This document shows, one piece after another, positions 7,901 through 50,527 of a DNA stretch of 64,000 nucleotides. Position 1 is the first letter of the stretch. Each line of letters starts with the position of its first letter. Origin of the DNA: Christensenellales bacterium (GTDB taxonomy: Bacteria; Bacillota; Clostridia; Christensenellales; CALWSW01); contig JAXGLZ010000001.1 of the NCBI GenBank assembly GCA_040768925.1, positions 607,016-671,015 on the forward strand, given 5' to 3'. The notes below the pieces were generated by a model. That model did no database searches and was not told where the DNA came from. It saw only the letters and a list, made by a program, of their open reading frames with translations. The translations under genes and the position numbers were made by a program.

Positions 7901-8566
7901 ATGAAACGCTTTGAAAAGTCATCCGGCAAAAATCCGCCCGCGCTTTTCATTCCGAAAAGCAGCAGGCTGCTGAACTGCGCCCTTTGCGGTTCCCCCGGGA
8001 TGGGCGGGCGCGGCCTTTGCCCGGATTGCGAACAAAAAATGCCCCAAAAGCCCGAAACAAGAAGGATTCCCGGAATCGGCCGGGCGGAGGCGGCGTTTGT
8101 TTACGAAGAGCCCGCCGCCGCCCTGGTTCACCGGTTCAAGTATCAAAACGGCCGCTATCTTGCGGAGCTTTTCGCCCTTTTTATGGCGGGGCTGGACGAT
8201 TTTCCCAAGGAAGCGGTGCTCGTTCCCGTTCCGCTGCACCCAAAGCGGCAAAAACTCCGCGGCTTTTCCCAAACCGTGGAGCTTTGCAAAGAGCTTTCCA
8301 AACTGACGGACCGGCGGGCGGAATGCGCCCTGCTGACAAGGAACCGGGATACGCCCCCCCAGACCGGCCTGCCTTTTGCGCAGCGCCGGACGAACCTTGC
8401 CGGGGCGTTCACGTCCGGCGGCGCAACGGGTCTTTCCGTGATTCTGGTGGACGACGTGATCACCAGCGGCGCAACGCTTCAGGAATGCGCAAAAACCCTG
8501 AAAAGCGCGGGGGCCGCGGCGGTTTTTGCCCTTTGCGCCTGCTCCGCCGAAAAGGGCGCGCAGTAA
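7901..8566 (+). CDS. comFC: ComF family protein (ComFC-type phosphoribosyltransferase-like)
   Basis: N-terminal CxxC...CxxC cluster (CALCGS...CPDCEQ). LVPVPLHPKRQKLRGFSQ and the PRTase motif ILVDDVITSGATL are present. I trimmed the track ORF 7844 to the ATG at 7901. Confidence 0.8.
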   Translation: MKRFEKSSGKNPPALFIPKSSRLLNCALCGSPGMGGRGLCPDCEQKMPQKPETRRIPGIGRAEAAFVYEEPAAALVHRFKYQNGRYLAELFALFMAGLDDFPKEAVLVPVPLHPKRQKLRGFSQTVELCKELSKLTDRRAECALLTRNRDTPPQTGLPFAQRRTNLAGAFTSGGATGLSVILVDDVITSGATLQECAKTLKSAGAAAVFALCACSAEKGAQ

Positions 8567-8582
8567 CGCCTGAAATCAAACG

Positions 8583-8887
8583 CCCGGGCGGCCGATGCGT
8601 CATGCCCGGGCGTTAGGCCGGCTGGTTTTTCGCTTCGCGCAGGGTCGTCGTCGGCGAAGCCGACATCATTCCTTGATGAAATACCGTAATCTGCGATTTC
8701 GGTTCAGCCGGCAGGAATCCTTGTAAAAGTGCCGGAATCTGCGATTTCAGCGAAAGAAATTTCGGCCACAAGTGACCGAAATAATGCGTCAAAAGTTGAT
8801 TGAAGCTTAGGGGCTGGGGTCCCTGAATCGTGGGATAGGGTTTTTTTACAGTCTGGCCCGGGCGGCCGATGCGGCATGCCCGGGCGT
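8583..8887 (+). repeat. Type-1 modular hairpin repeat, copy A (element about 8614-8856), bracketed by two copies of the comFC/GT2 terminator core
   Basis: The 31-bp CCCGGGCGGCCGATGCG(T/G)CATGCCCGGGCGT occurs at 8583-8613 and 8857-8887 (30/31 identical). The interior shares modules with copies at 14.6, 37.4 and 46.3 kb, including TTCGCTTCGCGCAGG, the palindrome TTTCGG(C/T)CACAAGTGACCGAAA, and GTTGATTGAAGCTTAGGGGCTGGGGTCCCTGAA. Confidence 0.8.
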
Positions 8888-29659: not shown

Positions 29660-32518
29660 TTATACCACGATGCGGCATTCGCGGATCTTGGTGTTGCCCT
29701 TGGTGTTGACGTAAACCCGATAGGCGCCGACCGTATAGGTATCCGCGGCGTTGTTTTGGATCGTAAAAGTATCCGTGTATACCTTTGCCGTGCCGTCGGA
29801 ATACAGCTCGGTTACAGCAATGGTCAGTTCGTTTGTGCTGCCGGGAATTTTGTTGACCGAAGCGGATGCCTGCGCGCCCGTTTTCACGGCGGCGGGGATC
29901 GGCGGTTCGGCCCAGATGACGACGGCGGGGTCCTCGCCCACATTCTGGGTGGTCTCAAAGACCTTTTTCTGGTAGGTCGCCTCAAAGGGATAGCCGGTGG
30001 GCAGCATTTCCATCGTGCTGCCGGTTTTGCCGCTGCCAAAGGTTTTCCAGCCGCCGGCATAGAACTTTGCCGCGGCCTCAAGGGGCGTTCCGTGGCCGTC
30101 CAGCAGGTTGAAGGATACCAAAACGGTTTCAAATCGCACTGCTCCGTCTGCGGCAACGTCCTGGGTTTTTTGCACCCGCGCGCCGAGGTAGTTCACCTCA
30201 AAGGGGTAGGAACCGGGCAGCAGTTCCGCCGGGGTTCCGGTTTTGCCGAGGCTCCTCCAGCCGCCCGCATAGTATGCGGCGTTGGCGGTGAGCGGTTCAT
30301 TCGTCGAGCTTGTGAGCGTTACCGTCACGGGAACGGTTTGGAACACGACGACGGGGTCAAGGGAGATATCCTGGGATTTTTGGATCGAGGCGCCCTTGTA
30401 ACCGACGCCGAAGGAATAGGTGCCGGGCATCAGCTCCAGCGCGGCGGGGGTTCTGCCGGGAATGGTTTTCCAGCCGCCGGCGTAATACTGGGCCGCGCCA
30501 TCAAGCGGCTCGCCCGTGGAGCTCAGCAGCTGCACCACTACGCCCACGCTGTTGAAGGTGATGAAGGAACTCTCGGAAAGATCCTGGGTCTGTTTTGCGG
30601 TCGTACCGCCCAAGGTCATGCTGAAGGACAGGGATTTCGCCTTGTTGCCTGCAAGCATGCCGAAGCAGGTGCCGTCCGCCCCCGTCATGCCAAGGTCGCG
30701 CCACGCGCCGTCGTAATATTGGGCTTTGCCGCCTTCAACCGGCTGGCCGCCGCTGCCCAAAAGCCTGGCGTAGGCGATGGTGTATTCCAGGGATTGCCCG
30801 GCAACAGGGGTGATGGGCTGGGTCTTTTTGGGGAAGCCGCCGCCTTCGAAATAAAACTTGATTTCAACGGGCAAAAGCTCCACGGGTTCGGTATAGGTGA
30901 ACCATTTTGTGGTGTAGAAGGTGAGTTTTCCGCTTGCGAAGCGGATCGTGACGCGGCCGGTTTGGAACAGCACCTCGGAAGCGTCCGCCACGTTGATTTT
31001 GCGCTGCTGGCGCGCGCCGTTGTGGATGACTTCGAAGGTGTGTTCCACGGGCAGAAGCTCCATGGCGGCGTTGGTTTCGCCCTCGCCGTTATCGCCGAAG
31101 GGCTGCCATTTGCCGGCGTAGAAGTTGGCCGTGCCGCTTAAGGGCGCGCCTGCGGAATCGAGCAGCTTGAAGGTGAAGGCCCTTGTGGTGAAGGTGACTT
31201 CCGTTGCGCCGGACACCGTGACCTTTTGGTTCTGGAGGGCGCCCTTGTAATTCATCTGGAAGGTATACGCCTGTTCGAGCATTTCCATAGAGGTGTTTGC
31301 CGCGCCTTCGCCGTTATCGCCGAAGCGCAGCCAGCCGCCCGTGGCCGTGCCGTAGTGGCTGACGGCGCCCGAAAGGGCATTGCCCGTGGAGCTGATGAGC
31401 TTCACGCTGACGGGCACGGTTGTAAAGCTGAAAACCGGATTTTCGGACATGCGCTGATTGAGCTGCACCCGGCCGCCTTTATAGTCGAGGGCCACGGCGG
31501 TGGCGCTTTTGCCCCCGGGCAGCGCCAGCACAGCCGTGCCGGTTTCGTCGGTGACGGCGGCGCTGCTCACCCATCCGCCGGCGTAATAGGAAACAACGCC
31601 CCCCGCAAGGCCTTTGCCTGTGCTGCTCTTCAGCGTTACGAGGGCGAAATTGAGGCTGATCGGGTCTTGACCGATTGTGAGGATGCGGGTGAACTGCGGC
31701 TTCACCGAGCCGCCGAAGAAGAATTTGTATTCGCCCGGGAACATTTCGCCCGGCTGCTTGCCGTCTGAAAGCCTGTAGTAGCTATGGTCGCTCCCGAGGT
31801 AATCGATGACTCCGGAGTGATTGAACTGCACCCGCGTTGTTTTAAAGACGTGGTCGATGCCATCCCGCGTGATCTCCACGGGGATATAGCCCGAGCGCGT
31901 TCCCTTGTAACCGGCCTGTATGCCGTAGGTTCCGGCAAACAGCTCCCGGGCGGCGATGCCGTTTTCGTCGGTTTTGCCGAAGGTGGGGTAGGAGGAAGAC
32001 GCGTGGTAGGAAAGGCTGACGTTTGCAAGGGGTTCGCCAAAAGAGTTTTGCACTTTGACGCGCGCCTCAGTGGTGGCGAAGTCCACCTGAAGGCCTTCCG
32101 CGCCAAGCACAATTCCCGTTTGGACCGCCTTTGTATGCTGGTAACCGGCGGTCACGTTGTATGTGCCGGGTGTTAGGCTGAGCGCCAGCGTGCCGCCGCT
32201 GTCGCTCGTTCCCACGGATATCACGCTGCCGCCATACTAGCCGCCGCTCATGGAAAAGCTGACTCCCGCGAGCGGGTTGCCCTTGCTGTCTTTGACGGTA
32301 ATCGTCATCGGCGCGGTATCGGCGGTTGATGCAAGGGCGGAGGGGTCAGCCGGCTGTTCCCCCGCGTCCGGCAGTGCGATGTCCCCAGCCGGCGCGGGCT
32401 CGCTTTGCTCTGGTTCGGGCGCCGCCGTGTTCTCCTCCGCCAGCGCGTAAGAAGGCAGCAAGAGGAGCATGACGCACAGTGTGAGTACGAGTGAATACAG
32501 CCATGATCGTTTTTTCAT
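29660..32518 (-). pseudogene. Large secreted repeat protein (~10 CarboxypepD_reg/Ig-like repeats carrying a YYAGGW motif), interrupted by an in-frame TAG at 32237-32239
   Basis: Signal peptide MKKRSWLYSLVLTLCVMLLLLPSYALA with a GGGAGGA RBS at 32518. Track ORFs 32237..32683 and 29660..32224 are in the same frame (...SFSMSGG*YGGSVISVG...). There is no LPxTG or other C-terminal anchor. Confidence 0.7.
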
Positions 32519-33177
32519 GAATACGTCCTCCCGATTGATCATTTGGTTATTCCTATGAGTTCCTGCCGAATGGTTGGCCGCATGCAGCATGCCGCGCGCC
32601 AACCATGCTCCAATAAAAAAACCCGGGCCAAAAAGGCCAAGGCCGGTTGCACAATAAGCTCCGCATTTCCCATAAGTGCCCAACGAAGGGAAATATCTCG
32701 TTGCTTCCTTGTAATATATATAAGTTTATATCCTTTTAAGAAAAAGTCAACCGAAACGCCAGCATTCGGCAAATAAACCGTTCGACAAAAAAACGCAAAA
32801 AGATTTATATGGGCAAATGCGGCAATACCGCGGTTGGCGGCCGAAGGGAATGAGCATGCGGGAAAACGCGCTTGCGCAAGTTGTTTCAGGGTCCAGAAGT
32901 CTAATTTAAGGATTTCTCCACGCGCGCAATCAAGGGTTTTTGATTTGGTTCAGGGCTGCCCTGGTTTTGCCAAACGCTCAAAAACCGTTGGGGCCGGCCT
33001 TTCCGATAATCCGTAAGGCAGGCATGCAGGGCGGTCCGATTTCCCTCGTTCCCGGCGGGATTTCCCTTAGGGCCGGGGCAGTCCGTTTCATTTGCCGCCG
33101 GCGGCGCGGCCTGCCCTTCGAATCCCCTGAGCGCAGGCCAAAACAAAAGACCCCCGCCGCGCGGAGGCTTTCTGTTT

Positions 33178-33254
33178 TGGCGTTCCCGGCGGGATTCGAA
33201 CCCACGGCCTTCCGCTTAGGAGGCGGACGCTCTATCCTGCTGAGCTACGGAAAC
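33178..33254 (-). tRNA. tRNA-Arg (anticodon CCU), CCA encoded
   Basis: Minus strand: GTTTCCGTAGCTCAGCAGGATAGAGCGTCCGCCTCCTAAGCGGAAGGCCGTGGGTTCGAATCCCGCCGGGAACGCCA. It has a 7-bp acceptor stem, a D-loop AGCTCAGCAGGATAGAGC, the anticodon loop CT-CCT-AA, and a T-arm GTGGGTTCGAATCCCGC. Confidence 0.93.
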
Positions 33255-37383: not shown

Positions 37384-37708
37384 AAAAAACCGGCCCGTGC
37401 TTAAGGCCGTTCAGGGCGTCAAAAAAGGCCCGCGGGCCTTTTTCGTCGGAAGGTTTTCCGCTTCGCGCAAGGTCGTCGGCAAAGCCGACATCATTCCTTG
37501 ATGAAGTGCCGGAATCTATGATTCCGGCCAGGGAAATTTTGGTCACAAGTGACCGAAATGGCGCCGCAAAACTGACGCCCCAGTTGTTGGCGCAGCCAAC
37601 AACTGGGGCGTCAGTTTTGATTGAAGCTCAGGGGCTGCGGCCCCTGAAACCCCTGGATAGGGGTTTTTCGACAGTCTGAAAACCGGCCCGTGGTAAAGGC
37701 CGGTTTTT
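37384..37708 (+). repeat. Type-1 modular hairpin repeat, copy C (element about 37412-37677), between two copies of the queT/neuD terminator hairpin
   Basis: AAAAAACCGGCCCGTGCTTAAGGCCGTT (37384-37411) and GAAAACCGGCCCGTGGTAAAGGCCGGTTTTT (37678-37708) flank the element. This is the longest copy and carries every module, plus an extra 20-bp-stem hairpin (AAACTGACGCCCCAGTTGTTGG / CCAACAACTGGGGCGTCAGTTT). Confidence 0.8.
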
Positions 37709-38333
37709 AACGCAGGCTCTTTGCGGGCGCGCCGGCGACGGTGGCGCCCTTTTCGATGTTCCTGGTCACCACCGAGCCCGCGCCCACCGTTGCGCCGTCC
37801 CCCACGCGGATACCGGGCAGAACGGCGGAATTCGCCCCGATGGTGGAAAAATCCCCGGCGGCGGCCCGGCCAAGAAGAACCGCGCCCGGGCAAATGTGGG
37901 AAAAAACGCCCGCGCGGCAGTGATGCTCCACGATCGATGCGGTGTTGACGATGCAGCCCCTGCCGATTCCCGCCAGGGGGCCGACGTATGCCCCTGCGAG
38001 AACAAAGCACCCGCTGCCCAAAGCGGCAAAAGGGGAAACCACTGCGGCGGGGTGGATCACGGGCAGGGCAAAAAGGCCCAGACCGAGGGCTTGTTCCAGC
38101 AGCGCCCTGCGGAAGGCCCCGTCCCCGCTGGCGGCGCAGACAAAGGAAAATTCGCCCGCAAGCTGCGGCAGCAGCGAAAGGGGTCCGAGGACGGGGAAGC
38201 CCAAGACGCGGCTGTTTGTTGGGGCCGTATCGTCCAAAAAAGCGGCGGATCTGCCCGAGGCGGCGATCGCCCCCGCCGCGGCTGCCCCCATCCCGCCCGC
38301 GCAAAGGATCAGGACGGGGGAGCCCGCCCTCAA
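37707..38333 (-). CDS. NeuD/PglB-family sugar O/N-acetyltransferase (hexapeptide-repeat)
   Basis: N-terminal Rossmann-like VLILCAGGMGAAAAGAI followed by left-handed beta-helix repeats (IGRGCIVNTASIVEHHCRAGVFSHICPGAVLLG...). The TTG start overlaps the rfbB stop (TTGA). Confidence 0.75.
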   Translation of the reverse strand: MRAGSPVLILCAGGMGAAAAGAIAASGRSAAFLDDTAPTNSRVLGFPVLGPLSLLPQLAGEFSFVCAASGDGAFRRALLEQALGLGLFALPVIHPAAVVSPFAALGSGCFVLAGAYVGPLAGIGRGCIVNTASIVEHHCRAGVFSHICPGAVLLGRAAAGDFSTIGANSAVLPGIRVGDGATVGAGSVVTRNIEKGATVAGAPAKSLR

Positions 38334-39253
38334 AGCAGCTCCTTCAGGCCATCCTCGAAGCCGATTCCCGGCTCAAAGCCCAGTTCGTTCCGGATGCGGG
38401 AGCAATCGAGGGCATATCGTTGGTCGTGGCCTTTCCGGTCCGCCACGAAACGCACCGGGTCCCCGGAAAATTGGGTCATTTCGGCGAGCTTTCGCACCAG
38501 CGCGAGGTTCGAAAGCTCCACCCCGCTGCCGATGTTATAAACCCTGCCGGCTTTGCCCCGCTCCGCGACCAGCATCAGCGCCTTGCAGTGATCGTCCGTG
38601 TGGATCCATTCCCGGGTGTTTGTGCCGTCGCCGTAAACGGGAACGGGTTCGTTCGCCTTCAGGCAGCGGAGGATGGTGGGCAGCAGCTTTTCGCCGTGCT
38701 GGCTGGGGCCGTAGTTGTTGCAGCAGCGGGTGATTGAAACGTTCAGGCCGTGGGTTTTACAAAAGGCCAGGGCAAAGTGGTCCCCCGCTGCCTTGCTGGC
38801 GGAATAGGGGCTGTTCGGCATCAGGGGCCGGTCTTCGTCCCAGGACGGGTCGGTTTTGCCAAGGGAGCCGTAGACCTCGTCCGTCGAAACCTGCACAAAG
38901 CGCGAGACGCGCTCGTTGACCGCGGTTTGAAGAAGAACCGCGGTGCCCAGCACGTTCGACCGGGCAAAGGCGCAGCCGTTTTCGATGGAACGGTCCACGT
39001 GGCTTTCCGCCGCAAGATGGAAGACCAGATCGAACCCGTATTCCCGGAATAAAGAGGAAACCAGCGGCCCGTCGCAGATGTCCCCCTCGATGAACTCGTG
39101 GCGGGGGTGGTTCTGGAATCCGCCCAGGCGCGAAAGATCCGCGGCATAGGTCAGCGCATCCAGATTGACGACGAAATCCCCCGCATCGATCAGCATGCGC
39201 GCCAGCCGCGCGCCGATGAACCCCGCCCCGCCGGTTACCAGCACGGTTTTCAT
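38330..39253 (-). CDS. rfbB: dTDP-glucose 4,6-dehydratase
   Basis: VLVTGGAGFIGARL, STDEVYG and YSASKAAGD (YxxxK). GAGGTG RBS before the second ATG. The track ORF extended to 39427 runs into repeat DNA. Confidence 0.9.
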   Translation of the reverse strand: MKTVLVTGGAGFIGARLARMLIDAGDFVVNLDALTYAADLSRLGGFQNHPRHEFIEGDICDGPLVSSLFREYGFDLVFHLAAESHVDRSIENGCAFARSNVLGTAVLLQTAVNERVSRFVQVSTDEVYGSLGKTDPSWDEDRPLMPNSPYSASKAAGDHFALAFCKTHGLNVSITRCCNNYGPSQHGEKLLPTILRCLKANEPVPVYGDGTNTREWIHTDDHCKALMLVAERGKAGRVYNIGSGVELSNLALVRKLAEMTQFSGDPVRFVADRKGHDQRYALDCSRIRNELGFEPGIGFEDGLKELL

Positions 39254-39293
39254 AGTCATCACCTCAAAAAAACATATGCCCTTTGGACAGGCA

Positions 39294-39322
39294 AAAAGAC
39301 CGGGCGAAGGATGCGCCCGGTC
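39294..39322 (-). terminator. Canonical intrinsic terminator only ~40 nt upstream of the rfbB start codon (leader terminator)
   Basis: Minus strand: GACCGGGCG-catcctt-CGCCCGGTC followed by TTTTTGCC. Confidence 0.75.
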
Positions 39323-39329
39323 ACGGTTT

Positions 39330-39955
39330 GAGTTGGTTTGGATTGGGGGCGATGCGCCCGGAGGGTCGTTTGATCCCCTTGCATGAACCCTCATAAGGGC
39401 TGTGCGCCGGCAGTCGGATGGGGACACCCCGAATCGTTCCTATCCTCACTCTGGCGTGTTTCCAGACGGACTGGGGTCCCGGAGCGCAACGGCTTGCCTG
39501 CTGGACAGGAGGCCCGAAAGGCTCCTTAGAGTTCCATTATTAAGAAGTTCGCCGCATCCTAAAAGGACACCCATTTCCCGAATAAAACCCCTTTGATTCC
39601 TCTGCACAAAAGCCCCATAAGGGCTGTTCGCAGGCAGACGGATGGGGACACCCCGAAAATACTCTTTGCCTGCTCCGGTGTGTTTCCGGACGGTCTGGGG
39701 TCCCGGAGCCGGGCGGCAGGGGGCCCGAAAGGCTCCTTAGAGTCCCATTATTAAGAAGTTCGCCGCATCCTAAAAGAAAACCCATTTCCCGAAATAAAAT
39801 CCCTTTGATCCTCCCGCACAAAACCCCCATAAGGGCCGTTCGCAGGCAACCGGATGGAGACACCCCGAAAACACCCTTTGCCTGCTCCGGTGTGTTTCCA
39901 GACGGTCTGGGGTCCCGGAGCGCCAATGGCTTGCCGGGAAAACGGGGGTCCGGGG
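39330..39955 (-). repeat. Left arm of the nest: three minus-orientation core copies (anchor CATAAGGGC at 39391, 39616, 39829; spacings 225 and 213 bp)
   Basis: Direct reading. The copy nearest rfbB (39340-39540) is the most diverged. The other two are roughly 95% identical to plus-strand units. Confidence 0.8.
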
Positions 39956-40141
39956 GTGTCCCTCGGCGTTTTTTGCTTCTTTTTTTCGCAAAAAAAGAAG
40001 GTTCGCATTCCCGCAGGAATGACGCTTCCTTTCAGGAAGGAAATTCTTTTTTTTGCCCCAAAATGCCGCTTCCGGGGGGAGATCACCTACTTTTTTGGCA
40101 AAAAAAGAAGGTGCACATTTCCGCAGGAATGACGCTTCCTT

Positions 40142-41095
40142 TTAGGAAGGAAATTCTTTTTTTTGCCCCAAAATGGCATTTTCGGAGGAAAGAGAACCTA
40201 CTTTTTTTGTACGAAAAAAGTAGCAAAAAAGTGCCGGGGAGCCCCCCGGACCCCCTGCCCGGCAAGCCATTGGCGCTTCAGGAACCCAGACCGTCTGGAA
40301 ACACACCGGAGCAGGCAAAGGGTGTTTTCGGGGTGTCCCCATCCGGCTGCCTGCGCACAGCCCTTATGAGGGTTTTGTGCAGAGGGATCAACGGGGTTTT
40401 ATTTCGGGAAATGGGTGTCCTTTTTGAAGACGTGACGAGCTTTTGCAAATGACTGGGCGGAAGGAAATTTTCTTTTTTTGCCTCAAAATGGCACTTCGGA
40501 GGAAAGAGAATCTACTTTTTTTGCACAAAAAAAGTAGCAAAAAAGTGCCGGGGAGCCCCCCGGGCCCCCTGCCCGGCAAGCCATTGGCGCTTCGGGACCC
40601 CAGACCGTCCGGAAACACACCGGAGCAGGCAAAGGGTGTTTTCGGGGTGTCCCCCTCCGGCTGCCTGCGAACGGCCCTTATGAGGGTTTTGTGCGGGAGG
40701 ATCAAAGGGATTTTATTTCGGGAAATGGGTTTTCTTTTTTAAAGACGTGACGAGCTTTTGCAAATGACTGGGCGGAAGGAGATTCTCTTTTTTTGCCTCA
40801 AAATGGCACTTCGGAGGAAAGAGAACCTACTTTTTTGCACGAAAAAAGTAGCAAAAAAGTGCCGGGGAGCCCCCCGGACCCCCTGCCCGGCAAGCCATTG
40901 GCGCTTCGGGAACCCAGACCGTCTGGAAACACACCGGAGCAGGCAAAGGGTGTTTTCGGGGTGTCCCCCTCCGGCTGCCTGCGAACGGCCCTTATGGGGC
41001 CTTTGTGCAGAGGGATCAACGGGGTTTTGTTTTGGGAAATGGGCGTTCTTTTTTGAAGGCGACGAACTTTTGCAAATTGCCCGGCGGTGGGGCTT
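40142..41095 (+). repeat. Right arm of the nest: three head-to-tail units (starts about 40142, 40458, 40773; period 316/315 bp)
   Basis: Each unit contains a CTAC-T6/7-loop-A6/7-GTAG hairpin, a CGGGGAGCCCCCCG hairpin and the 160-bp core. Confidence 0.85.
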
Positions 41096-41114
41096 CAAAG
41101 GAAAAAGCGGGAAA

Positions 41115-41147
41115 CAAAAAAAACGCCGGGGGAAAATCCCCGGCGTT
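41115..41147 (-). terminator. Rho-independent terminator of tkt
   Basis: Minus strand: AACGCCGGGG-atttt-CCCCCGGCGTT followed by TTTTTTTT. Confidence 0.8.
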
Positions 41148-41162
41148 CCTCTTTAGCTGCGC

Positions 41163-43136
41163 TTATTTGCCCAGCACCTTAAGGCCGGTTTCCACCGCGT
41201 TTTCAACGGTGAAGCCGAATTCCTTGAACAGCGTGGCGGCCGGGGCGGAAGCGCCGAAGTGGTCCAGACCAATGACGGCGCCGTCCAGTCCAACGTATTT
41301 GTACCAGGGCATGGTCGCGCCGGCTTCGATGGCGACGCGGGCGCGCACGGCGGCGGGCAGGACGCTTTCCTTGTAGTCCGCGGACTGGGCGTCGAAGACC
41401 TCCGCGCAGGGCATGCTGACCACACGGACCTTGATTCCCCGCTCGGTCAGGGCTTCGCAGGCGCCGACGGCCTGCTCAACCTCGGAGCCGGAGGCGATAT
41501 AGATCAGATCGGGGGTGCCTTCGCAGTCCTTCAGAACGTATCCGCCCTTTAAGGCCGCCTTGCCGTCCTGGTCATAGGTGGGCAGGTTCTGGCGGGTGCA
41601 GACGATGCAGGTCGGGCCGTTAAAGGTCAGCGCGCTCAGATACGCGGCGGCGGTTTCCTTGCCGTCCGCCGGGCGGAAGACGTTCACGCCCGGGGTGGCC
41701 CGCAGGGCGGCCAGATGCTCCACAGGCTCGTGGGTGGGTCCGTCCTCGCCGACGCCGATGGAATCGTGGGTCAGGATGTAGATCACCCGGGTCTTCATCA
41801 GCGCGGAAAGCCGCAGAGCGCCCTTCAGGTAATCGGAGAACACAAAGAAGGTGGCGCAATAGGGGCGCAGCCCGCCGTGCAGCGCGATGCCGTTCGCCGC
41901 ACAGGCCATGGCGAATTCGCGCACGCCGAAGTGGATGTTCCCGCCGTCCCGGTCCGTTGGGCCGAACCAGCCGGTATTGGCCATGTCGGACTTGTTGGAG
42001 GGCGCGAGGTCCGCGGAGCCGCCGAACAGGGTGGGAACTTGCTTCGCGATGTAATTTAGGCACTTTCCGCTGGTGGCGCGGGTCGCGGCCTTGCCTGAGA
42101 AGTTCCAAAATTCCGGATCGTTCTCGAAATCGGGCAGATTGCCGGCAAAATAAGCGTCCAGCGCCTTCGCCTTTTCGGGATTGGCGTTCTGGTACGCGGC
42201 ATAAAGCGCTTCCCATTCGGCGCGCGCTTTGCCCAGGCGCTCCTTGTGGGCGGCGTAGGCGGCGGTTACTTCTTCCGGCACTTCAAAAGCGCCTTCACAG
42301 GGCCAGCCGAGGCTCTTTTTCATCTCGGCGATGTTCGCGTCGCCCAGGGGTTCGCCGTGGGCCTTGTGGGAACCGGCCAAGGGGGAGCCTTCGGCGATGC
42401 GGGTCTTGACGATCACCAGGGAGGGGGCCTCCTTGTTCGCCTTGGCTTCGTTGAGGGCCCTGGTGATGGCGGCCATGTCCGTTCCGTCCTCAACCTTGAT
42501 GACCTGCCAGCCGTAAGCCGCATAGCGGGCGCCCACGTCCTCGGTGAAGGCGACGTCCGTATTGCCCTCGATGGAAATATCGTTGTCGTCATAGATCACG
42601 ATGAGCTTGGAAAGCTTCAGCGTGCCCGCCAAAGAGGCGGATTCGCCGGAAACGCCTTCCATCAGGCAGCCGTCGCCGCTGAGGGCGTAAGTGTAGTGGT
42701 CGATCACCGGGAATTCAGGGGTGTTGAAGCGCGCGGCAAGATGCTCCTCGGCCATCGCCATGCCGACGGCCATCGCAACGCCCTGGCCCAGGGGCCCGCT
42801 GGTGGCGTCCACGCCGGCGGTATGGCCGAATTCGGGGTGGCCGGGGGTTTTGCTGCCCCACTGGCGGAAGGCTTTCAGATCGTCAATGGTAAGGCCGTAG
42901 CCGAAAAGGTGAAGAAGCGAATAAAGCAGCATGGAGCCGTGGCCCGCGGAAAGCACGAAGCGGTCGCGGTTGATCCATTCGGGGCAGGCGGGATCGTGGC
43001 GCATCACGTTTGCCCAAAGGGCGTAAGCCGCCGGCGCGGCGCCAAGGGGAAGGCCCGGATGACCGGAATTCGCCTTCTGAATGGCTTCTGCCGAAAGCAC
43101 GCGCAGAGCGTTCATGGCGAGGGTATCTTTGCTCAT
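41163..43136 (-). CDS. tkt: Transketolase
   Basis: [26 protein letters not shown] (TPP motif) and [31 protein letters not shown] trimmed the track ORF to the ATG at 43136. Confidence 0.93.
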
Positions 43137-45482: not shown

Positions 45483-46220
45483 ATGCAGCTGAAGGACAGG
45501 GTATGCGTCGTGACCGGCGCGGCAAGCGGAATAGGCCGCCAGATCGCGGTTGCCTACGCCAAAGAAGGCGCAAAGGTGGCGGTTGTGGACATTCAGCAGG
45601 AAAAAGCGGAAGAAACGGCAAAGGAAACCAACGGCAGGGCGTATGTTTGCAATCTGCGCGCCGTTTCCGAGATCGAATCCACCATGGCCGCGATCAAAAA
45701 GGATTTCGGTCGGGTGGACGTTCTGGTAAACGTGGCGGGCCTTGCGAACCGCACCCCGATTGAAGATATCACCGAAGCGGAATGGGATCTTTTGAACGAC
45801 GTCAACCTCAAGGCCACCTTCTTCATGGCCAAGGAAGCGTATAAAATCATGGTGAAGCAGGGCGGCGGAAAGATCATCAACCTCGCTTCCCACCGGGCCC
45901 GCACGTCGGACGGCCGCCACACGATCTACGACGCGACCAAGGCCGGCGTCGAGGCCATCACCAGGAGCTTCGCCGTCGCCGGCGGGCCCAACGGCGTCGT
46001 CACCAACACCATCGTGCCCGCCTACGTCATCACCCCCATGACCGCCCACAACTTGGAAAACCAGGGGTGGCTGGACCACATGAAGGAGCGCATCCCCCTG
46101 GGCCGCCTTTTTGAGATGCAGGAGGTGGCGAACATCGCGCTGTTCCTCGCTTCGGATAATTCCTCAGGCATCAACGGCCAGCCCATCGTGCTGGACGGCG
46201 GCTGGACGATCCACGAATGA
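45483..46220 (+). CDS. SDR-family oxidoreductase
   Basis: VVTGAASGIGRQIA, NVAGL and YDATKAG (YxxxK). GGAGG RBS. I trimmed the track ORF to the ATG at 45483. Confidence 0.88.
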   Translation: MQLKDRVCVVTGAASGIGRQIAVAYAKEGAKVAVVDIQQEKAEETAKETNGRAYVCNLRAVSEIESTMAAIKKDFGRVDVLVNVAGLANRTPIEDITEAEWDLLNDVNLKATFFMAKEAYKIMVKQGGGKIINLASHRARTSDGRHTIYDATKAGVEAITRSFAVAGGPNGVVTNTIVPAYVITPMTAHNLENQGWLDHMKERIPLGRLFEMQEVANIALFLASDNSSGINGQPIVLDGGWTIHE

Positions 46221-46272
46221 TCCAAGGCGGCGGAAAAGGCCCGCGCATCCTTGCCGCCGGTGGTCAACGCTG

Positions 46273-46410
46273 CCGCGCAAGGTAATCTCGGGCATTCGCG
46301 CCCGAAACAGCACGGCAAAACTGACGGCGTGAGCGTCGGTTTTGATTGCGCCTTGATTGTACCTCAAGGGCTGCGGGCCCTGAAACCCCATTGTTGGGGC
46401 TTGTCGATAC
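46273..46410 (+). repeat. Type-1 modular repeat, partial copy D (3' modules only)
   Basis: GGCAAAACTGACG...CGTCGGTTTTGATTG...CTCAAGGGCTGCGGGCCCTGAAACCCCATTGTTGGGGCTTGTCGA aligns to the 3' half of copy C. No duplicated flank is seen. Confidence 0.6.
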
Positions 46411-46462
46411 CATCAATCTTCGTCGGGCGAAGATAAAATAATGATTGTGCTGGAGGCTAAAG

Positions 46463-48499: not shown

Positions 48500-49261
48500 T
48501 CAGCCAAACCGGAACGCCAGAGCGGTGTCGTCAAAGCGCTCGGGCGTGCCGTTCCTGTTCAGTATGATCAGCGCGCCGTCGTCGTCCACCCCCATCACCC
48601 GGGCGGTGCGCTCTTCGCCAGCAACGATATAGGTAATTTCCTTCTCGAGCGCGGTAGACCGGTCGCGGTAAAATTCCATGTACGCCCTGTTGCCGGGGTC
48701 GTTCACAAGGCCAAGCAGTTCCCGGGCGATTTCCCCCGCGAGCCTTCCGGGGGAAAGGTACGGCGCCTCCAGGGAGCCGAACGCGCAAAAAGGCTCGTTT
48801 TGCGGTTCGCCGCCGCAGATGTTGACCGTGATGCCCACGATGATCCCGCAATGCCCCTGCGCAACGGCGGTATTGACCAGGATGGCCGCGATCTGCTTTC
48901 CCCCAATACAGATTTCTCCCGGCCAATTGATCACCGGCCGTTGGGGTGTAAGCCTTTCAATCGCCATAACGCAGGCAGCCGCGGCCATTGACGTTATGGA
49001 GAGGGGACTCACGCGCTCGCCCCCGGGCCCAAGAAGCAGGGAAAAATGCGCCGAAATCCCCTCATGGGAAGAAAAAGAATCCCCCGCCGCCCGATCGCCG
49101 GTCTGCTCCAGGGCGGAGAAGATCACAGGGCCCGTTTCGCCCGCCGAAAGCGCCCGCAGGGCTTGCGCGTCCGTCGAATCGGCAGCGGAGAAGGCCCGCA
49201 CCGGAATTCCGGGGCAGGCGGCTTCGATATCGCTCTGCAGTTTTTGTTCGGCATTCACCAT
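48500..49261 (-). CDS. Biotin-protein-ligase-fold (BPL_LplA_LipB) protein with degenerate catalytic motifs
   Basis: Group-I BirA-like length (253 aa). Where GRGRxGRxW is expected it reads QTGDRAAGDSFSS. Where KWPND is expected it reads INWPGE. GKQIAAILVNT is retained. Confidence 0.55.
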   Translation of the reverse strand: MVNAEQKLQSDIEAACPGIPVRAFSAADSTDAQALRALSAGETGPVIFSALEQTGDRAAGDSFSSHEGISAHFSLLLGPGGERVSPLSITSMAAAACVMAIERLTPQRPVINWPGEICIGGKQIAAILVNTAVAQGHCGIIVGITVNICGGEPQNEPFCAFGSLEAPYLSPGRLAGEIARELLGLVNDPGNRAYMEFYRDRSTALEKEITYIVAGEERTARVMGVDDDGALIILNRNGTPERFDDTALAFRFG

Positions 49262-50034
49262 CTTTTCTTTTTTCCAAAGGCGGTTTTCAGGTGATCGTCC
49301 AGCTTGCCGGAATCGACAAAGGGCAAAAGCGGCATGATGGCCGCAATGCCTTTTTCGCGCATGATCTCCATCGCGATGCGGCTGACGGCCTCCCCGCGCA
49401 GGAAGGGTGCGATGGCGGCGAGGTCCGAGGCGTCTCGGCCTTCTTCAATCAGGCCCTCGGCGATCTTCCCGAGGACATCTCTGTCCAAAAAAGGCGCGAT
49501 TGCCGCGAGGTCCGAGGCGTCTCCGCCTTCCTCGATCAGGCCCACGGCGATCTTCCCGAGAACGTCTTCGCCCAGAAAAGGCGCGATGGCGGCAAGCTCG
49601 CCAATGCCGCACCCTGAACCGATCAGGGAAAGGGCGATTTCCTCCAGCGCTTCCTGGCTGACGAAGGGCGCCAGCGCCGCAAGCTCGCCGATGGAAAGCC
49701 GGGCGTTTTTTGCGGCTTTGTCCGCCTGATCCGGGCGGAGCAGGGGTGCCACTTCTTTGATCTCGTCTCCGGTCAGTTTCGGGGCTTCTTCGCTTTTTTC
49801 CAGCTTTTCCAGCAGGTTCGCCGTCTGCCTGTCGCCCAGGATTTCGTCCACGGTTACCCCCAGGGCTTCAGAGAGTTCGGGCAGCCTTGAAATATCCGGC
49901 ATCGTCTGGCCGCGCTCCCAGTTGGAGACTGCCTGGAAGCTGACCCCCATACGGTCCGCAAGTTCCATTTGAGTAAGGTTCGCAGCCTTTCTCATGCGCG
50001 AGATATTCCCGCCAATTTTCTTCATGTCGAACAT
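49255..50034 (-). CDS. XRE-family HTH protein with C-terminal 29-aa tandem repeats
   Basis: HTH LTQMELADRMGVSFQAVSNWERGQTMP. The C-terminal half has about 4 repeats of the type LAAIAPFL(G/D)xDVLGKIAxGLIEEGxDASD. It overlaps the BirA-like start by 7 nt. Confidence 0.8.
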   Translation of the reverse strand: MFDMKKIGGNISRMRKAANLTQMELADRMGVSFQAVSNWERGQTMPDISRLPELSEALGVTVDEILGDRQTANLLEKLEKSEEAPKLTGDEIKEVAPLLRPDQADKAAKNARLSIGELAALAPFVSQEALEEIALSLIGSGCGIGELAAIAPFLGEDVLGKIAVGLIEEGGDASDLAAIAPFLDRDVLGKIAEGLIEEGRDASDLAAIAPFLRGEAVSRIAMEIMREKGIAAIMPLLPFVDSGKLDDHLKTAFGKKKRW

Positions 50035-50527
50035 GATACACGCGTCCTTTCTTTTTGTTGCGGCGAAAGAATGAAAACATCGTTTTTGAAACCTCCTGGT
50101 TCCTCGATGCAAACACTCTATCCCGCAGCGGCGAAAAAGCACAGCAAACGGTGCTTGAAAGGCCGGCTGTTCACGACTCAAGCCCTGCTTGAGCCGTTTT
50201 GTTTTTCATTATACCACAATGGATGCGGCCTGATCGAAGAATTGCGGGGCACAAAGGCTCCAAATCCGGACGGCACGGAGCCGCAAGCAAAAACCTTTTG
50301 ACACGTTTTGCAGTTCACAGCGCTTAAAATCCTGGCCGCAGGCAAAAGAATTTTGGAAAAAATGGCTTGCAAAATTGAAATTTAAAAAAATTGCGGCCGT
50401 AATGCCGAATCCGGCCGGGGAGAAATGATCATATGTCAGGATATTTATGAAAATAAAAAACAAACGCATGTCAACGCAGCCCAAAAATGGTTGATCGCAA
50501 GAACATAAGCCCAAAAACTGGGTTCGT

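Follow-up and report, generated by a model that had tools for sequence, protein, structure and literature searches.

Opposed arrays of a terminator-bearing, non-coding repeat between rfbB and tkt in a group of Christensenellales

Background

REP and BIME elements are imperfect palindromes of 20-40 nt with a conserved GTAG, which occur in hundreds of copies and are associated with a RAYT transposase. The BOX, RUP and SPRITE elements of pneumococci are mostly shorter than 200 bp, carry terminal inverted repeats (TIRs) and target-site duplications (TSDs), and are scattered over the genome in more than 100 copies; SPRITE resembles a Rho-independent terminator, and the three kinds of element cluster and nest (PMC3049150). 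Among small RNAs, LhrC of Listeria is present in five copies with G-poor UCCC motifs (PMC4132741), and nsiR1 of Anabaena/Nostoc in 12 tandem copies, each with its own promoter (PMC4030482). Here we describe a nest of repeats in a 64,000-nt stretch of the genome of a Christensenellales bacterium (GenBank assembly GCA_040768925.1, contig JAXGLZ010000001.1, positions 607,016 to 671,015), referred to below as the window. Six copies of a unit of ~200 nt lie in the spacer between rfbB and tkt, three in a left array on the plus strand (L1-L3) and three in a right array on the minus strand (R1-R3), and the two arrays face each other across a centre of A/T palindromes. We give an even chance to the reading that the nest is clade-restricted, locally amplified, terminator-bearing non-coding repeat DNA that is shaped by unequal crossing-over, gene conversion and inversion and whose activity, if any, is that of a two-way terminator stack. 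As a sequence family it is new, but arrays of recombining intergenic repeats with hairpins and terminators are a familiar kind.

No sequence similarity was found between the nest and any of the families searched. Like BOX, RUP, SPRITE and the enterobacterial BIMEs, the nest is non-coding, modular, hairpin-rich and intergenic, lies beside terminators and has units in both orientations; it differs from them in that its unit is 200-310 bp long and known from one locus only, and the window yielded no TIR, TSD or transposase. It also departs from REP and BIME elements in its tetranucleotide, which varies (CTAC/GTAG in R1-R3, CTTC/GAAG in the central palindrome C1, CTGC/GCAG in L092, a related contig with three copies), and the window has no Y1 transposase. 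With LhrC1-5 and nsiR1 it shares side-by-side paralogous units, units with their own terminators (R1-R3, L3), and G-poor, C-rich stretches that could bind Shine-Dalgarno sequences. However, the RNAs of those systems measure 60-114 nt, and for each copy a promoter has been demonstrated, along with a conserved pairing motif, whereas the nest has no detectable promoter, its C-rich tail is the least conserved part, half of its copies are reversed and two lack a T-run.

The terminators resemble ordinary intrinsic terminators, with a GC stem and T6 in R1-R3 and L3 that are retained in L092, but they are serially stacked and embedded in a repeated ~160-nt body plus tail, and the T-run is followed by a second, perfect A/T palindrome. 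Inverted-repeat recombination of the RecA type would find its likeness in the ~170-200-bp repeats that bound a segment found both ways round, in copies that evolve in concert and in patches that move; this is a process rather than an element family, and no dedicated recombinase or functional read-out is evident, unlike in site-specific invertons. Known invertons have short repeats (tens of bp) and a dedicated recombinase. In contrast, the repeats of the nest are 167 nt long, its centre has no promoter-like site and there is no recombinase in the window, although an inversion between lineages is still seen.

Architecture of the nest

Between rfbB (38333-39253, minus) and tkt (41166-43136, minus) there are 1,912 bp without a credible gene, and the nest extends over 39345-41090 of this spacer. 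By repeat finding and TRF, L1, L2 and L3 were placed within 39350-39921 (plus strand, spacing 224 and 212), R1, R2 and R3 within 40145-41056 (minus strand, spacing 314 and 314), and two direct repeats of 98-110 bp, 90% identical, at 39981-40188 within the centre (39976-40224), which consists of A/T palindromes and two 110-bp modules. An nhmmer profile of the six copies gave exactly six matches in the window, all at the nest and none in the other 62 kb, and a 24-base core pattern gave six matches where 0.00 were expected. The repeat finders, TRF and nhmmer thus bear out a first-pass annotation of this DNA, which had described six opposed core copies around an A/T-hairpin centre. It had also assigned ~95% identity to the inverted arms nearest the centre; a 96% inverted pair does exist, but it is formed by L3 and R2, with 633 nt between the arms, and the innermost pair, L3 and R1, is 91% identical.

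Read on the terminator strand, a unit consists of a 53-nt C/A-rich, G-poor tail, a GC-rich body of ~115 nt and a terminator. The tail contains 8-13% G, compared with 30% in the window, and 36-40% C, and in predicted ensembles it is less paired than the body (0.31-0.48 vs 0.58-0.64). Two subtypes alternate along the arrays, A with the signature GTGCAGAGG in L2, R1 and R3, and B with GTGCGGGAGG in L3 and R2, while L1 has neither and is a truncated outlier (67% identical to L2 over 136 nt). Both L1 and L2 have a GAAA-loop hairpin and no T-run, and their junctions are deletion derivatives of the terminator, the palindrome and the centre module. The differences in the right array are unevenly spread: R2 and R3 differ at 12/58 positions of the tail vs 3/143 of the body plus terminator, and in this array generally the body and terminator differ by 0-5% and the tail by 12-21%. 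The hairpin motif GGGGTGTCCCC, earlier listed as conserved, reads GGGGTGTCTCC in L3. The features of the nest and its flanks are given below by window position and, where assigned, strand.

39345..39545, plus: unit L1, which adjoins rfbB; first ~45 nt missing; the most diverged copy, with the GAAA-loop hairpin GGAGGCCCGAAAGGCTCC in place of the T-run; nhmmer E 4e-49; 98.6% identical between strains, the same as the flanks
39506-39602 and 39717-39813: repeat of the L1-L2 and L2-L3 junctions, 97 nt, 88% identical
39560..39760, plus: unit L2, subtype A (CCTCTGCAC), lacking a T-run terminator; the L2-L3 junction derives by deletion from the terminator, palindrome and centre module
39772..39975, plus: unit L3, subtype B (CCTCCCGCAC); terminator 39950-39966 followed by T6; inverted repeat with R2 of 167 nt, 96%
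39976..40000: A/T palindrome C1, CTTC-T7-CGC-A7-GAAG, read directly; the same variant is in L092 at 638-662
40001..40086, plus: centre module copy 1, with hairpins ATTCC-CGCA-GGAAT and CTTCC-TTTCA-GGAAG, then T8, then the GCCCCAAAATGCC block; direct repeat of 98 nt, 90%, period 110; terminator-like site 40025-40039
40087..40110: A/T palindrome C2, CTAC-T6-GGC-A7-GAAG, a hybrid of two variants with one mismatch
40111..40197, plus: centre module copy 2; terminator-like site 40135-40149
40198..40223: A/T palindrome of R1, CTAC-T7-GTACG-A6-GTAG
40225..40425, minus: unit R1, subtype A; terminator 40234-40249 followed by T6
40426..40511, minus: spacer upstream of R1, a Y-like module and TTGCAA box; 3 differences in 88 nt from the R2 spacer; no sigma-70-like site
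40512..40537: A/T palindrome of R2, CTAC-T7-GCAC-A7-GTAG
40539..40739, minus: unit R2, subtype B; terminator 40548-40563 followed by T6
40740..40826, minus: spacer upstream of R2; TTGCAA at 40758-40763, 16 nt, TAAAAA at 40736-40741, a weak promoter-like pair without the -7 T
40827..40851: A/T palindrome of R3, CTAC-T6-GCACG-A6-GTAG
40853..41053, minus: unit R3, subtype A, the first unit past tkt; terminator 40862-40877 followed by T6
41054..41090, minus: remnant upstream of R3 and right boundary of the nest; homology to the R1 and R2 spacers stops near 41087
41129..41141, minus: tkt's own terminator (flank), native, also in relatives without the nest
39298..39322, minus: hairpin of the rfbB leader with T5 (flank), native, conserved in L007, L011 and L092

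An assembly artefact, either a fold-back chimera or a mis-expanded repeat, might be suspected, as the window belongs to a long contig (1,007,676 bp) and short-read assemblies of the clade break inside the nest. This explanation is essentially excluded. The copies differ by 4-33%, so they represent neither a collapse nor a perfect fold-back, and both outer junctions are 100% identical in independent short-read contigs (L001, L005), with the R3-tkt junction confirmed in L001, L002 and L095. The six-copy layout was found entire in a second assembly, L094 (97.4% colinear), and for the most part in L090 as well, and the three-copy version is complete in L092, which was built from short reads.

Two further observations concern the assemblies themselves. 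Positions 1-61 of the short-read contig L003 (Logan SRR27558879) run from L1 into a subtype-B tail with an R2-specific base. Such a join reflects either a copy-number variant without L2 or an assembly-graph walk along shared 32-mers and 55-mers; contigs L004 and L006 end exactly at the branch point of L003, and since the graph walk explains the join, L003 was not used as a structural variant. In L094 (GCA_040769605.1, 10001-11973), tkt is broken into two open reading frames (ORFs; 543 and 86 aa) and the rfbB call is shortened (272 aa), which suggests assembly indel errors, and the small differences of this assembly from the window are not to be trusted.

The locus in related genomes

By its tkt sequence the bacterium belongs to Christensenellales. 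In the two closest species representatives, L007 and L011, rfbB also comes next after tkt, but the two genes are just 174 bp and 139 bp apart, respectively. Their Tkt proteins are 91% and 90% identical in amino acids to that of the window, and the gaps hold the same tkt terminator and rfbB-leader hairpin; this short spacer is an empty site. Nest-bearing contigs were reached through the RfbB and Tkt clusters at 90% identity, and they place the nest in at least three sublineages.

Sublineage W: the window, L090 (GCA_964425015.1), L094 (GCA_040769605.1, six copies) and L095 (JGI 3300009117), about 97% colinear with the window
Sublineage X: L092 (ENA ERZ21878706), L097 and L098, rfbB 92% identical in nucleotides to that of the window
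Sublineage Y: L099-L101, rfbB 94% identical in nucleotides to that of the window

Because W, X and Y all carry the nest and L007 and L011 have the empty site, one species-group has the nest as a stable trait, found in over ten sequencing runs, and it arose once that group had split from L007 and L011. No publication was found for the run accessions. Besides the orthologous spot, no unit copies were found in the flanks of about 100 related loci.

Turnover within the nest

Copy number varies from three in L092, where the complete spacer measures 1,049 nt, to six in the window and L094. The L092 spacer has one unit co-directional with tkt, then the centre and two opposed units, compared with the 3+3 arrangement of the window and L094. 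Read from tkt to rfbB, the non-palindromic centre of L092 aligns to the plus strand of the window, which runs from rfbB to tkt (score 88, 72%), and not to the minus strand (20.5, 58%). Moreover, the unit on the tkt side of L092 has an L3-type terminator (91%) and its opposed unit an R-type terminator (88%), i.e. the types are exchanged. The alignment thus indicates that, with respect to the flanking genes, the centre of L092 has been inverted. Since the longest exact inverted repeat in the L092 nest is 46 nt, assembly ambiguity at k=55 is disfavoured as a source of this arrangement. The suggestion of the first-pass annotation that the region could invert by recombination is therefore borne out by at least one inversion. 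The W-lineage assemblies L090 and L094 share the centre orientation of the window.

Between the window and L090, the flanking coding DNA is 98.8-99.6% identical, the rfbB leader 98.9% and L1 98.6%, vs 92-94% for L2, L3, the centre, R1 and R2. The differences in the nest are patches that define subtypes A and B, exchanged piecemeal between copies. L1 serves as an internal control here because it is too diverged to be a conversion partner. Patch exchange between strains runs ~5x faster than the divergence of the flanks. Copies within one genome are 88-96% identical vs 73-78% for orthologous copies, i.e. they evolve in concert.

Between the window and L092, identity at four-fold degenerate sites (437 sites in rfbB, pglD, tkt and queT) is 82.8%. 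For the units the same comparison gave 60-76% for tails, 73-78% for bodies and 70-91% for terminators, and no part of the unit is clearly more conserved than synonymous sites.

Transcription signals and folding

Canonical intrinsic terminators, a feature that the first-pass annotation did not report, end four of the six units (R1, R2, R3 and L3) and point to the centre. They are GC stem-loops with a direct T-run at 40877-40862, 40563-40548 and 40249-40234 on the minus strand and at 39950-39966 on the plus strand, i.e. on the strand opposite to the one that had been called plus for the units. The stems are 6-bp, all-GC, with a 4-nt loop and T6 in R1-R3, and 7-bp with T6 in L3, and the A/T palindrome then follows. 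Terminator-like sites number 10, compared with 5.5 +/- 2.7 expected from shuffles, and the terminators are kept in the centre-proximal units of L092 at 88-91% identity. Within 39100-41300, a promoter scan confined to sigma-70-like sites found none. The best candidate, TTGCAA-N16-TAAAAA, went unreported by that scan; the -7 T is missing from it, R1 and R3 have other spacings, and its conservation does not extend to L092. The terminator of tkt is strong (9-bp stem, T8), and R3 lies behind it.

The search for a conserved RNA structure gave little. Single-sequence folding was no better than that of dinucleotide shuffles on either strand (z +0.9 and +0.4), and a column-shuffle test on the six copies was weak and not strand-specific (z -2.5 sense, -2.1 antisense). 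The covariation term was +0.56 with 6 sequences and -0.4 with 14, with which the consensus energy falls to -27.8 kcal/mol. Among 17 copies, the two helices of the pseudoknot-capable layout proposed earlier, GCAGGCA:TGCCTGC and GAAAACAC:GTGTTT, are 74% and 76% paired, respectively, and the departures are broken pairs without compensation. Covariation among the copies, named at the outset as a check, does not exceed that of slid controls: double changes were seen in 2 of 32 pairs (GGGG/CCCC to GGA/TCC, and one terminator pair) and the controls gave 3. We therefore find no support for a conserved complex fold or a pseudoknot in the unit.

The A/T palindrome has been credited with arms that change together. 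Its stem is indeed kept through CTAC/GTAG, CTTC/GAAG and CTGC/GCAG, but at 40087-40110 CTAC and GAAG are combined in a hybrid palindrome with one mismatch, so that the arms do not change together in every case. In a perfect palindrome, retention of the stem could also be explained by intrastrand templated repair, and it holds for DNA or for RNA of either strand. The evidence on strand from G.U vs A.C pairs is mixed, with CCGGACGG and GUCGGA:UCUGGC of L1 favouring the terminator strand, and GGAGACACCCC and CCAGACGGCCTGG of L092 the opposite strand.

Coding potential and database matches

The repeats are crossed by ORFs of up to 215 aa, but the reading frame changes from copy to copy, none had a Pfam match, and the six-frame translation of one unit had no homologue among 5.8 billion proteins, all in line with the first-pass view that the region has no credible coding sequence. 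A small protein or type I toxin was rejected as a candidate, since there is no conserved small ORF with a ribosome-binding site or Pfam match and R2 and R3 have lost the ATG of GGATGGGG. No tRNA or tmRNA is in the nest, and a replication terminus or origin was rejected on the GC skew, which has no switch there.

At gathering thresholds, Rfam 15 matched only a tRNA and a c-di-GMP-II riboswitch in the whole window, both away from the nest, and at E<=5 the region 39200-41250 had only sub-threshold chance matches, mostly on the tkt terminator. The core thus stays outside the Rfam families, as had been supposed from inspection. By blastn against phages and plasmids, the only match was to 35 nt of an A/T palindrome, in Flumine microvirus 27 (OM953921.1; L087, 100-134; 97%). 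This match, to window 40512-40547, covers the palindrome and CAAAAAAGTG; in the microvirus, which comes from river water, it lies where nothing is annotated. It is probably a coincidence, because the motif is absent from IMG/VR.

Exact core-pattern scans gave 0 matches among the GTDB species representatives (a set without GCA_964425015.1 and GCA_040769605.1), 0 in JGI metagenome contigs with two patterns, and in IMG/VR 0, or two identical chance matches. These negatives are weak because the scans require 21-24 exact bases and missed JGI contig L095 (3300009117), which holds the pattern. No transposase, recombinase or reverse transcriptase was found among the 38 window ORFs scanned against Pfam, which are housekeeping or metabolic (SecA, QueT, SpoIIE, FGGY kinases, thymidine kinase and others).

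Origin and possible role of the nest

The reading of the nest as local, recombining repeat DNA draws on the observed empty site, copy-number variation, inversion, patch exchange, near-neutral rate and absence of covariation. A unit of about 200-310 bp, in which a 5' part poor in G and rich in C and A is followed by a GC-rich body, an intrinsic terminator with its T-run and an A/T palindrome, would have entered or arisen in a tkt-rfbB spacer that was formerly ~150 bp long, and would then have been amplified locally into two arrays aimed at a common centre. The comparisons show that unequal crossing-over shifts the copy number (3 to 6), that ectopic gene conversion carries short patches between copies, and that homologous recombination between opposed units has flipped the centre. 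The sequence drifts at about the neutral rate or faster, with its helices not kept by compensation. Termination is probably the only activity readable from the sequence that both lineages retain. The tkt/rfbB strand has three serial terminators and the opposite strand one to three, so that the nest could block transcription from either side and form an insulator, in contrast to a conserved structured RNA gene, which it does not resemble in behaviour. Because terminators on both strands would stop incoming transcription, the nest can be described as a two-way terminator stack between tkt and rfbB, and we infer that stopping transcription from both sides is its only consistent activity.

Several points weigh against this account. 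Bacterial genomes have a deletion bias, and the persistence of at least 1 kb of apparently functionless DNA over about 17% synonymous divergence is unexpected. The unevenness between body and tail in the right array could equally reflect selection on the body or diversification of the tail rather than patchy conversion. A 40-nt block, CTCCGGTGTGTT(T/C)CCAGACGG(T/C)CTGGGTT(C/G)CCGAAG, is about 92% identical between lineages, beside 16 nt at about 40%. The inversion call rests on a single contig, L092, at 4.5x coverage. Finally, the relatives manage with two simple terminators, so the stack is not obviously needed.

The uniform body and terminators of the right array, set against its far more variable tails, would also suit a multicopy small-RNA locus, in which the intact units R1-R3, and perhaps L3, are genes for an RNA of ~190 nt, each with a promoter and terminator of its own, and the left-arm copies are decaying pseudogenes. 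The long persistence of the nest and the 40-nt block likewise lend this reading some weight. The single-stranded, C-rich, G-poor 5' tail would then pair with G-rich ribosome-binding sites, like the UCCC motifs of LhrC and RsaE. Canonical terminators on four of the six units, the tail's composition and lower pairing, the anti-Shine-Dalgarno-like GAUCCUCCC in subtype B tails and the precedents of LhrC (PMC4132741) and nsiR1 (PMC4030482) all speak for it. We nevertheless consider it unlikely, given that 39100-41300 has no sigma-70-like promoter and the weak TTGCAA-16-TAAAAA is not conserved in L092, that the putative seed in the tail is the least conserved part between lineages (60-76%), and that there is neither covariation nor excess folding energy. 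In addition, R3 sits behind the strong tkt terminator, which makes supply by read-through unlikely, and congeners have the same spacer without units. There is a slim chance that the units are a new family of terminator-ended regulatory RNAs whose C-rich tails are deliberately diversified by patchy gene conversion and inversion, as a seed cassette system upstream of surface-sugar genes. A switch acting on those genes is another matter: flips of the centre or a larger block would turn the downstream rfbB-pglD surface-sugar genes on and off in a phase-variable manner. Inverted repeats of 167 nt (91-96%) do flank the centre, both centre orientations occur among lineages, and the nest lies directly upstream of this two-gene sugar-modification operon. 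However, the centre has no promoter-like site on either strand, the terminators face inwards in both orientations so that a flip would have no predictable effect, the 64-kb window has no invertase or recombinase, and the W-lineage assemblies (L090, L094) are all in one orientation, which together make a switch highly improbable.

The empty site in two congeners and the modular mosaic build with deletion derivatives could instead come from miniature mobile elements (of the MITE, BOX/RUP or BIME kind), nested by repeated insertion and mobilised in trans by a transposase elsewhere. The A/T palindrome can be read as two abutting ends (...CTAC-T7 / A7-GTAG...), which the hybrid C2 (CTAC/GAAG) fits; the same genome has a truly dispersed second family of intergenic repeats with an empty site in L092; and BOX, RUP and SPRITE likewise cluster and insert into each other (PMC3049150). 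We regard this origin as doubtful, more so than the small-RNA locus, because the six copies share one locus and the other 62 kb have none, compared with four dispersed copies of the second family in the window. Moreover, there is no TIR beyond the low-complexity AAAAAAG/CTTTTTT and no clear TSD against the empty sites of L007 and L011, the window has no transposase, and units of 200-310 bp with A-B alternation and fixed 314/212 bp spacing look like tandem duplication. The resemblance to BOX and RUP elements remarked on in the first pass therefore did not extend to dispersed copies, convincing TIRs or TSDs, or a transposase in the 64-kb window.

Neighbouring features

The rfbB leader (39277-39322, minus) has two consecutive elements of hairpin plus T-run immediately before the ribosome-binding site, and both are conserved in L007, L011 and L092. 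These could be an attenuator, or a sign that rfbB is fed by read-through from tkt.

A second, unrelated family of intergenic repeats (~190-310 nt) has four copies in the window, at 8565-8877, 14640-14827, 37393-37699 and 46206-46438, all on the plus strand and each directly after the stop of a plus-strand gene. There is no Rfam match. A copy is built from a terminator-like hairpin, the hairpin AAATTTCGGTCACAAGTGACCGAAAT, and TTGATTGAAGCTCAGGGGCTGCGGCCCCTGAAACCCC..GGGGTTTTT, and between copies some stems differ by apparently compensatory changes. L092, with a pglD-QueT spacer of 35 nt, lacks the copy at 37393-37699; in the window this copy is flanked by a duplicated terminator arm of ~25 nt (37384-37409, 37679-37704). 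This empty site and duplicated arm suggest that the family may be a mobile element that targets terminators. A partial match was found at the orthologous spot of L007.

The c-di-GMP-II riboswitch (32632-32717, minus) scored 54.4 bits, vs a gathering threshold of 53.5 bits, and precedes the coding sequence (29660-32224, minus) of an 854-aa protein that has internal repeats; the tRNA is at 33181-33254. Tandem repeats of 87 bp (49373-49627) lie within the coding sequence of a helix-turn-helix (XRE-type) protein (49255-50181, minus), and L007 has a similar 89-bp repeat at 11019-11202.

Conclusions

For the behaviour of repeat DNA in a compact bacterial genome the nest offers a clean natural case, with empty, three-copy and six-copy forms, an inverted centre and patch exchange from strain to strain found together in one intergenic spacer. 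In practice, its spurious ORFs of up to 215 aa should not be annotated, and short-read assemblies of the clade break there. If the units were expressed small RNAs, the shuffling of their tails would be a new way to diversify regulators.

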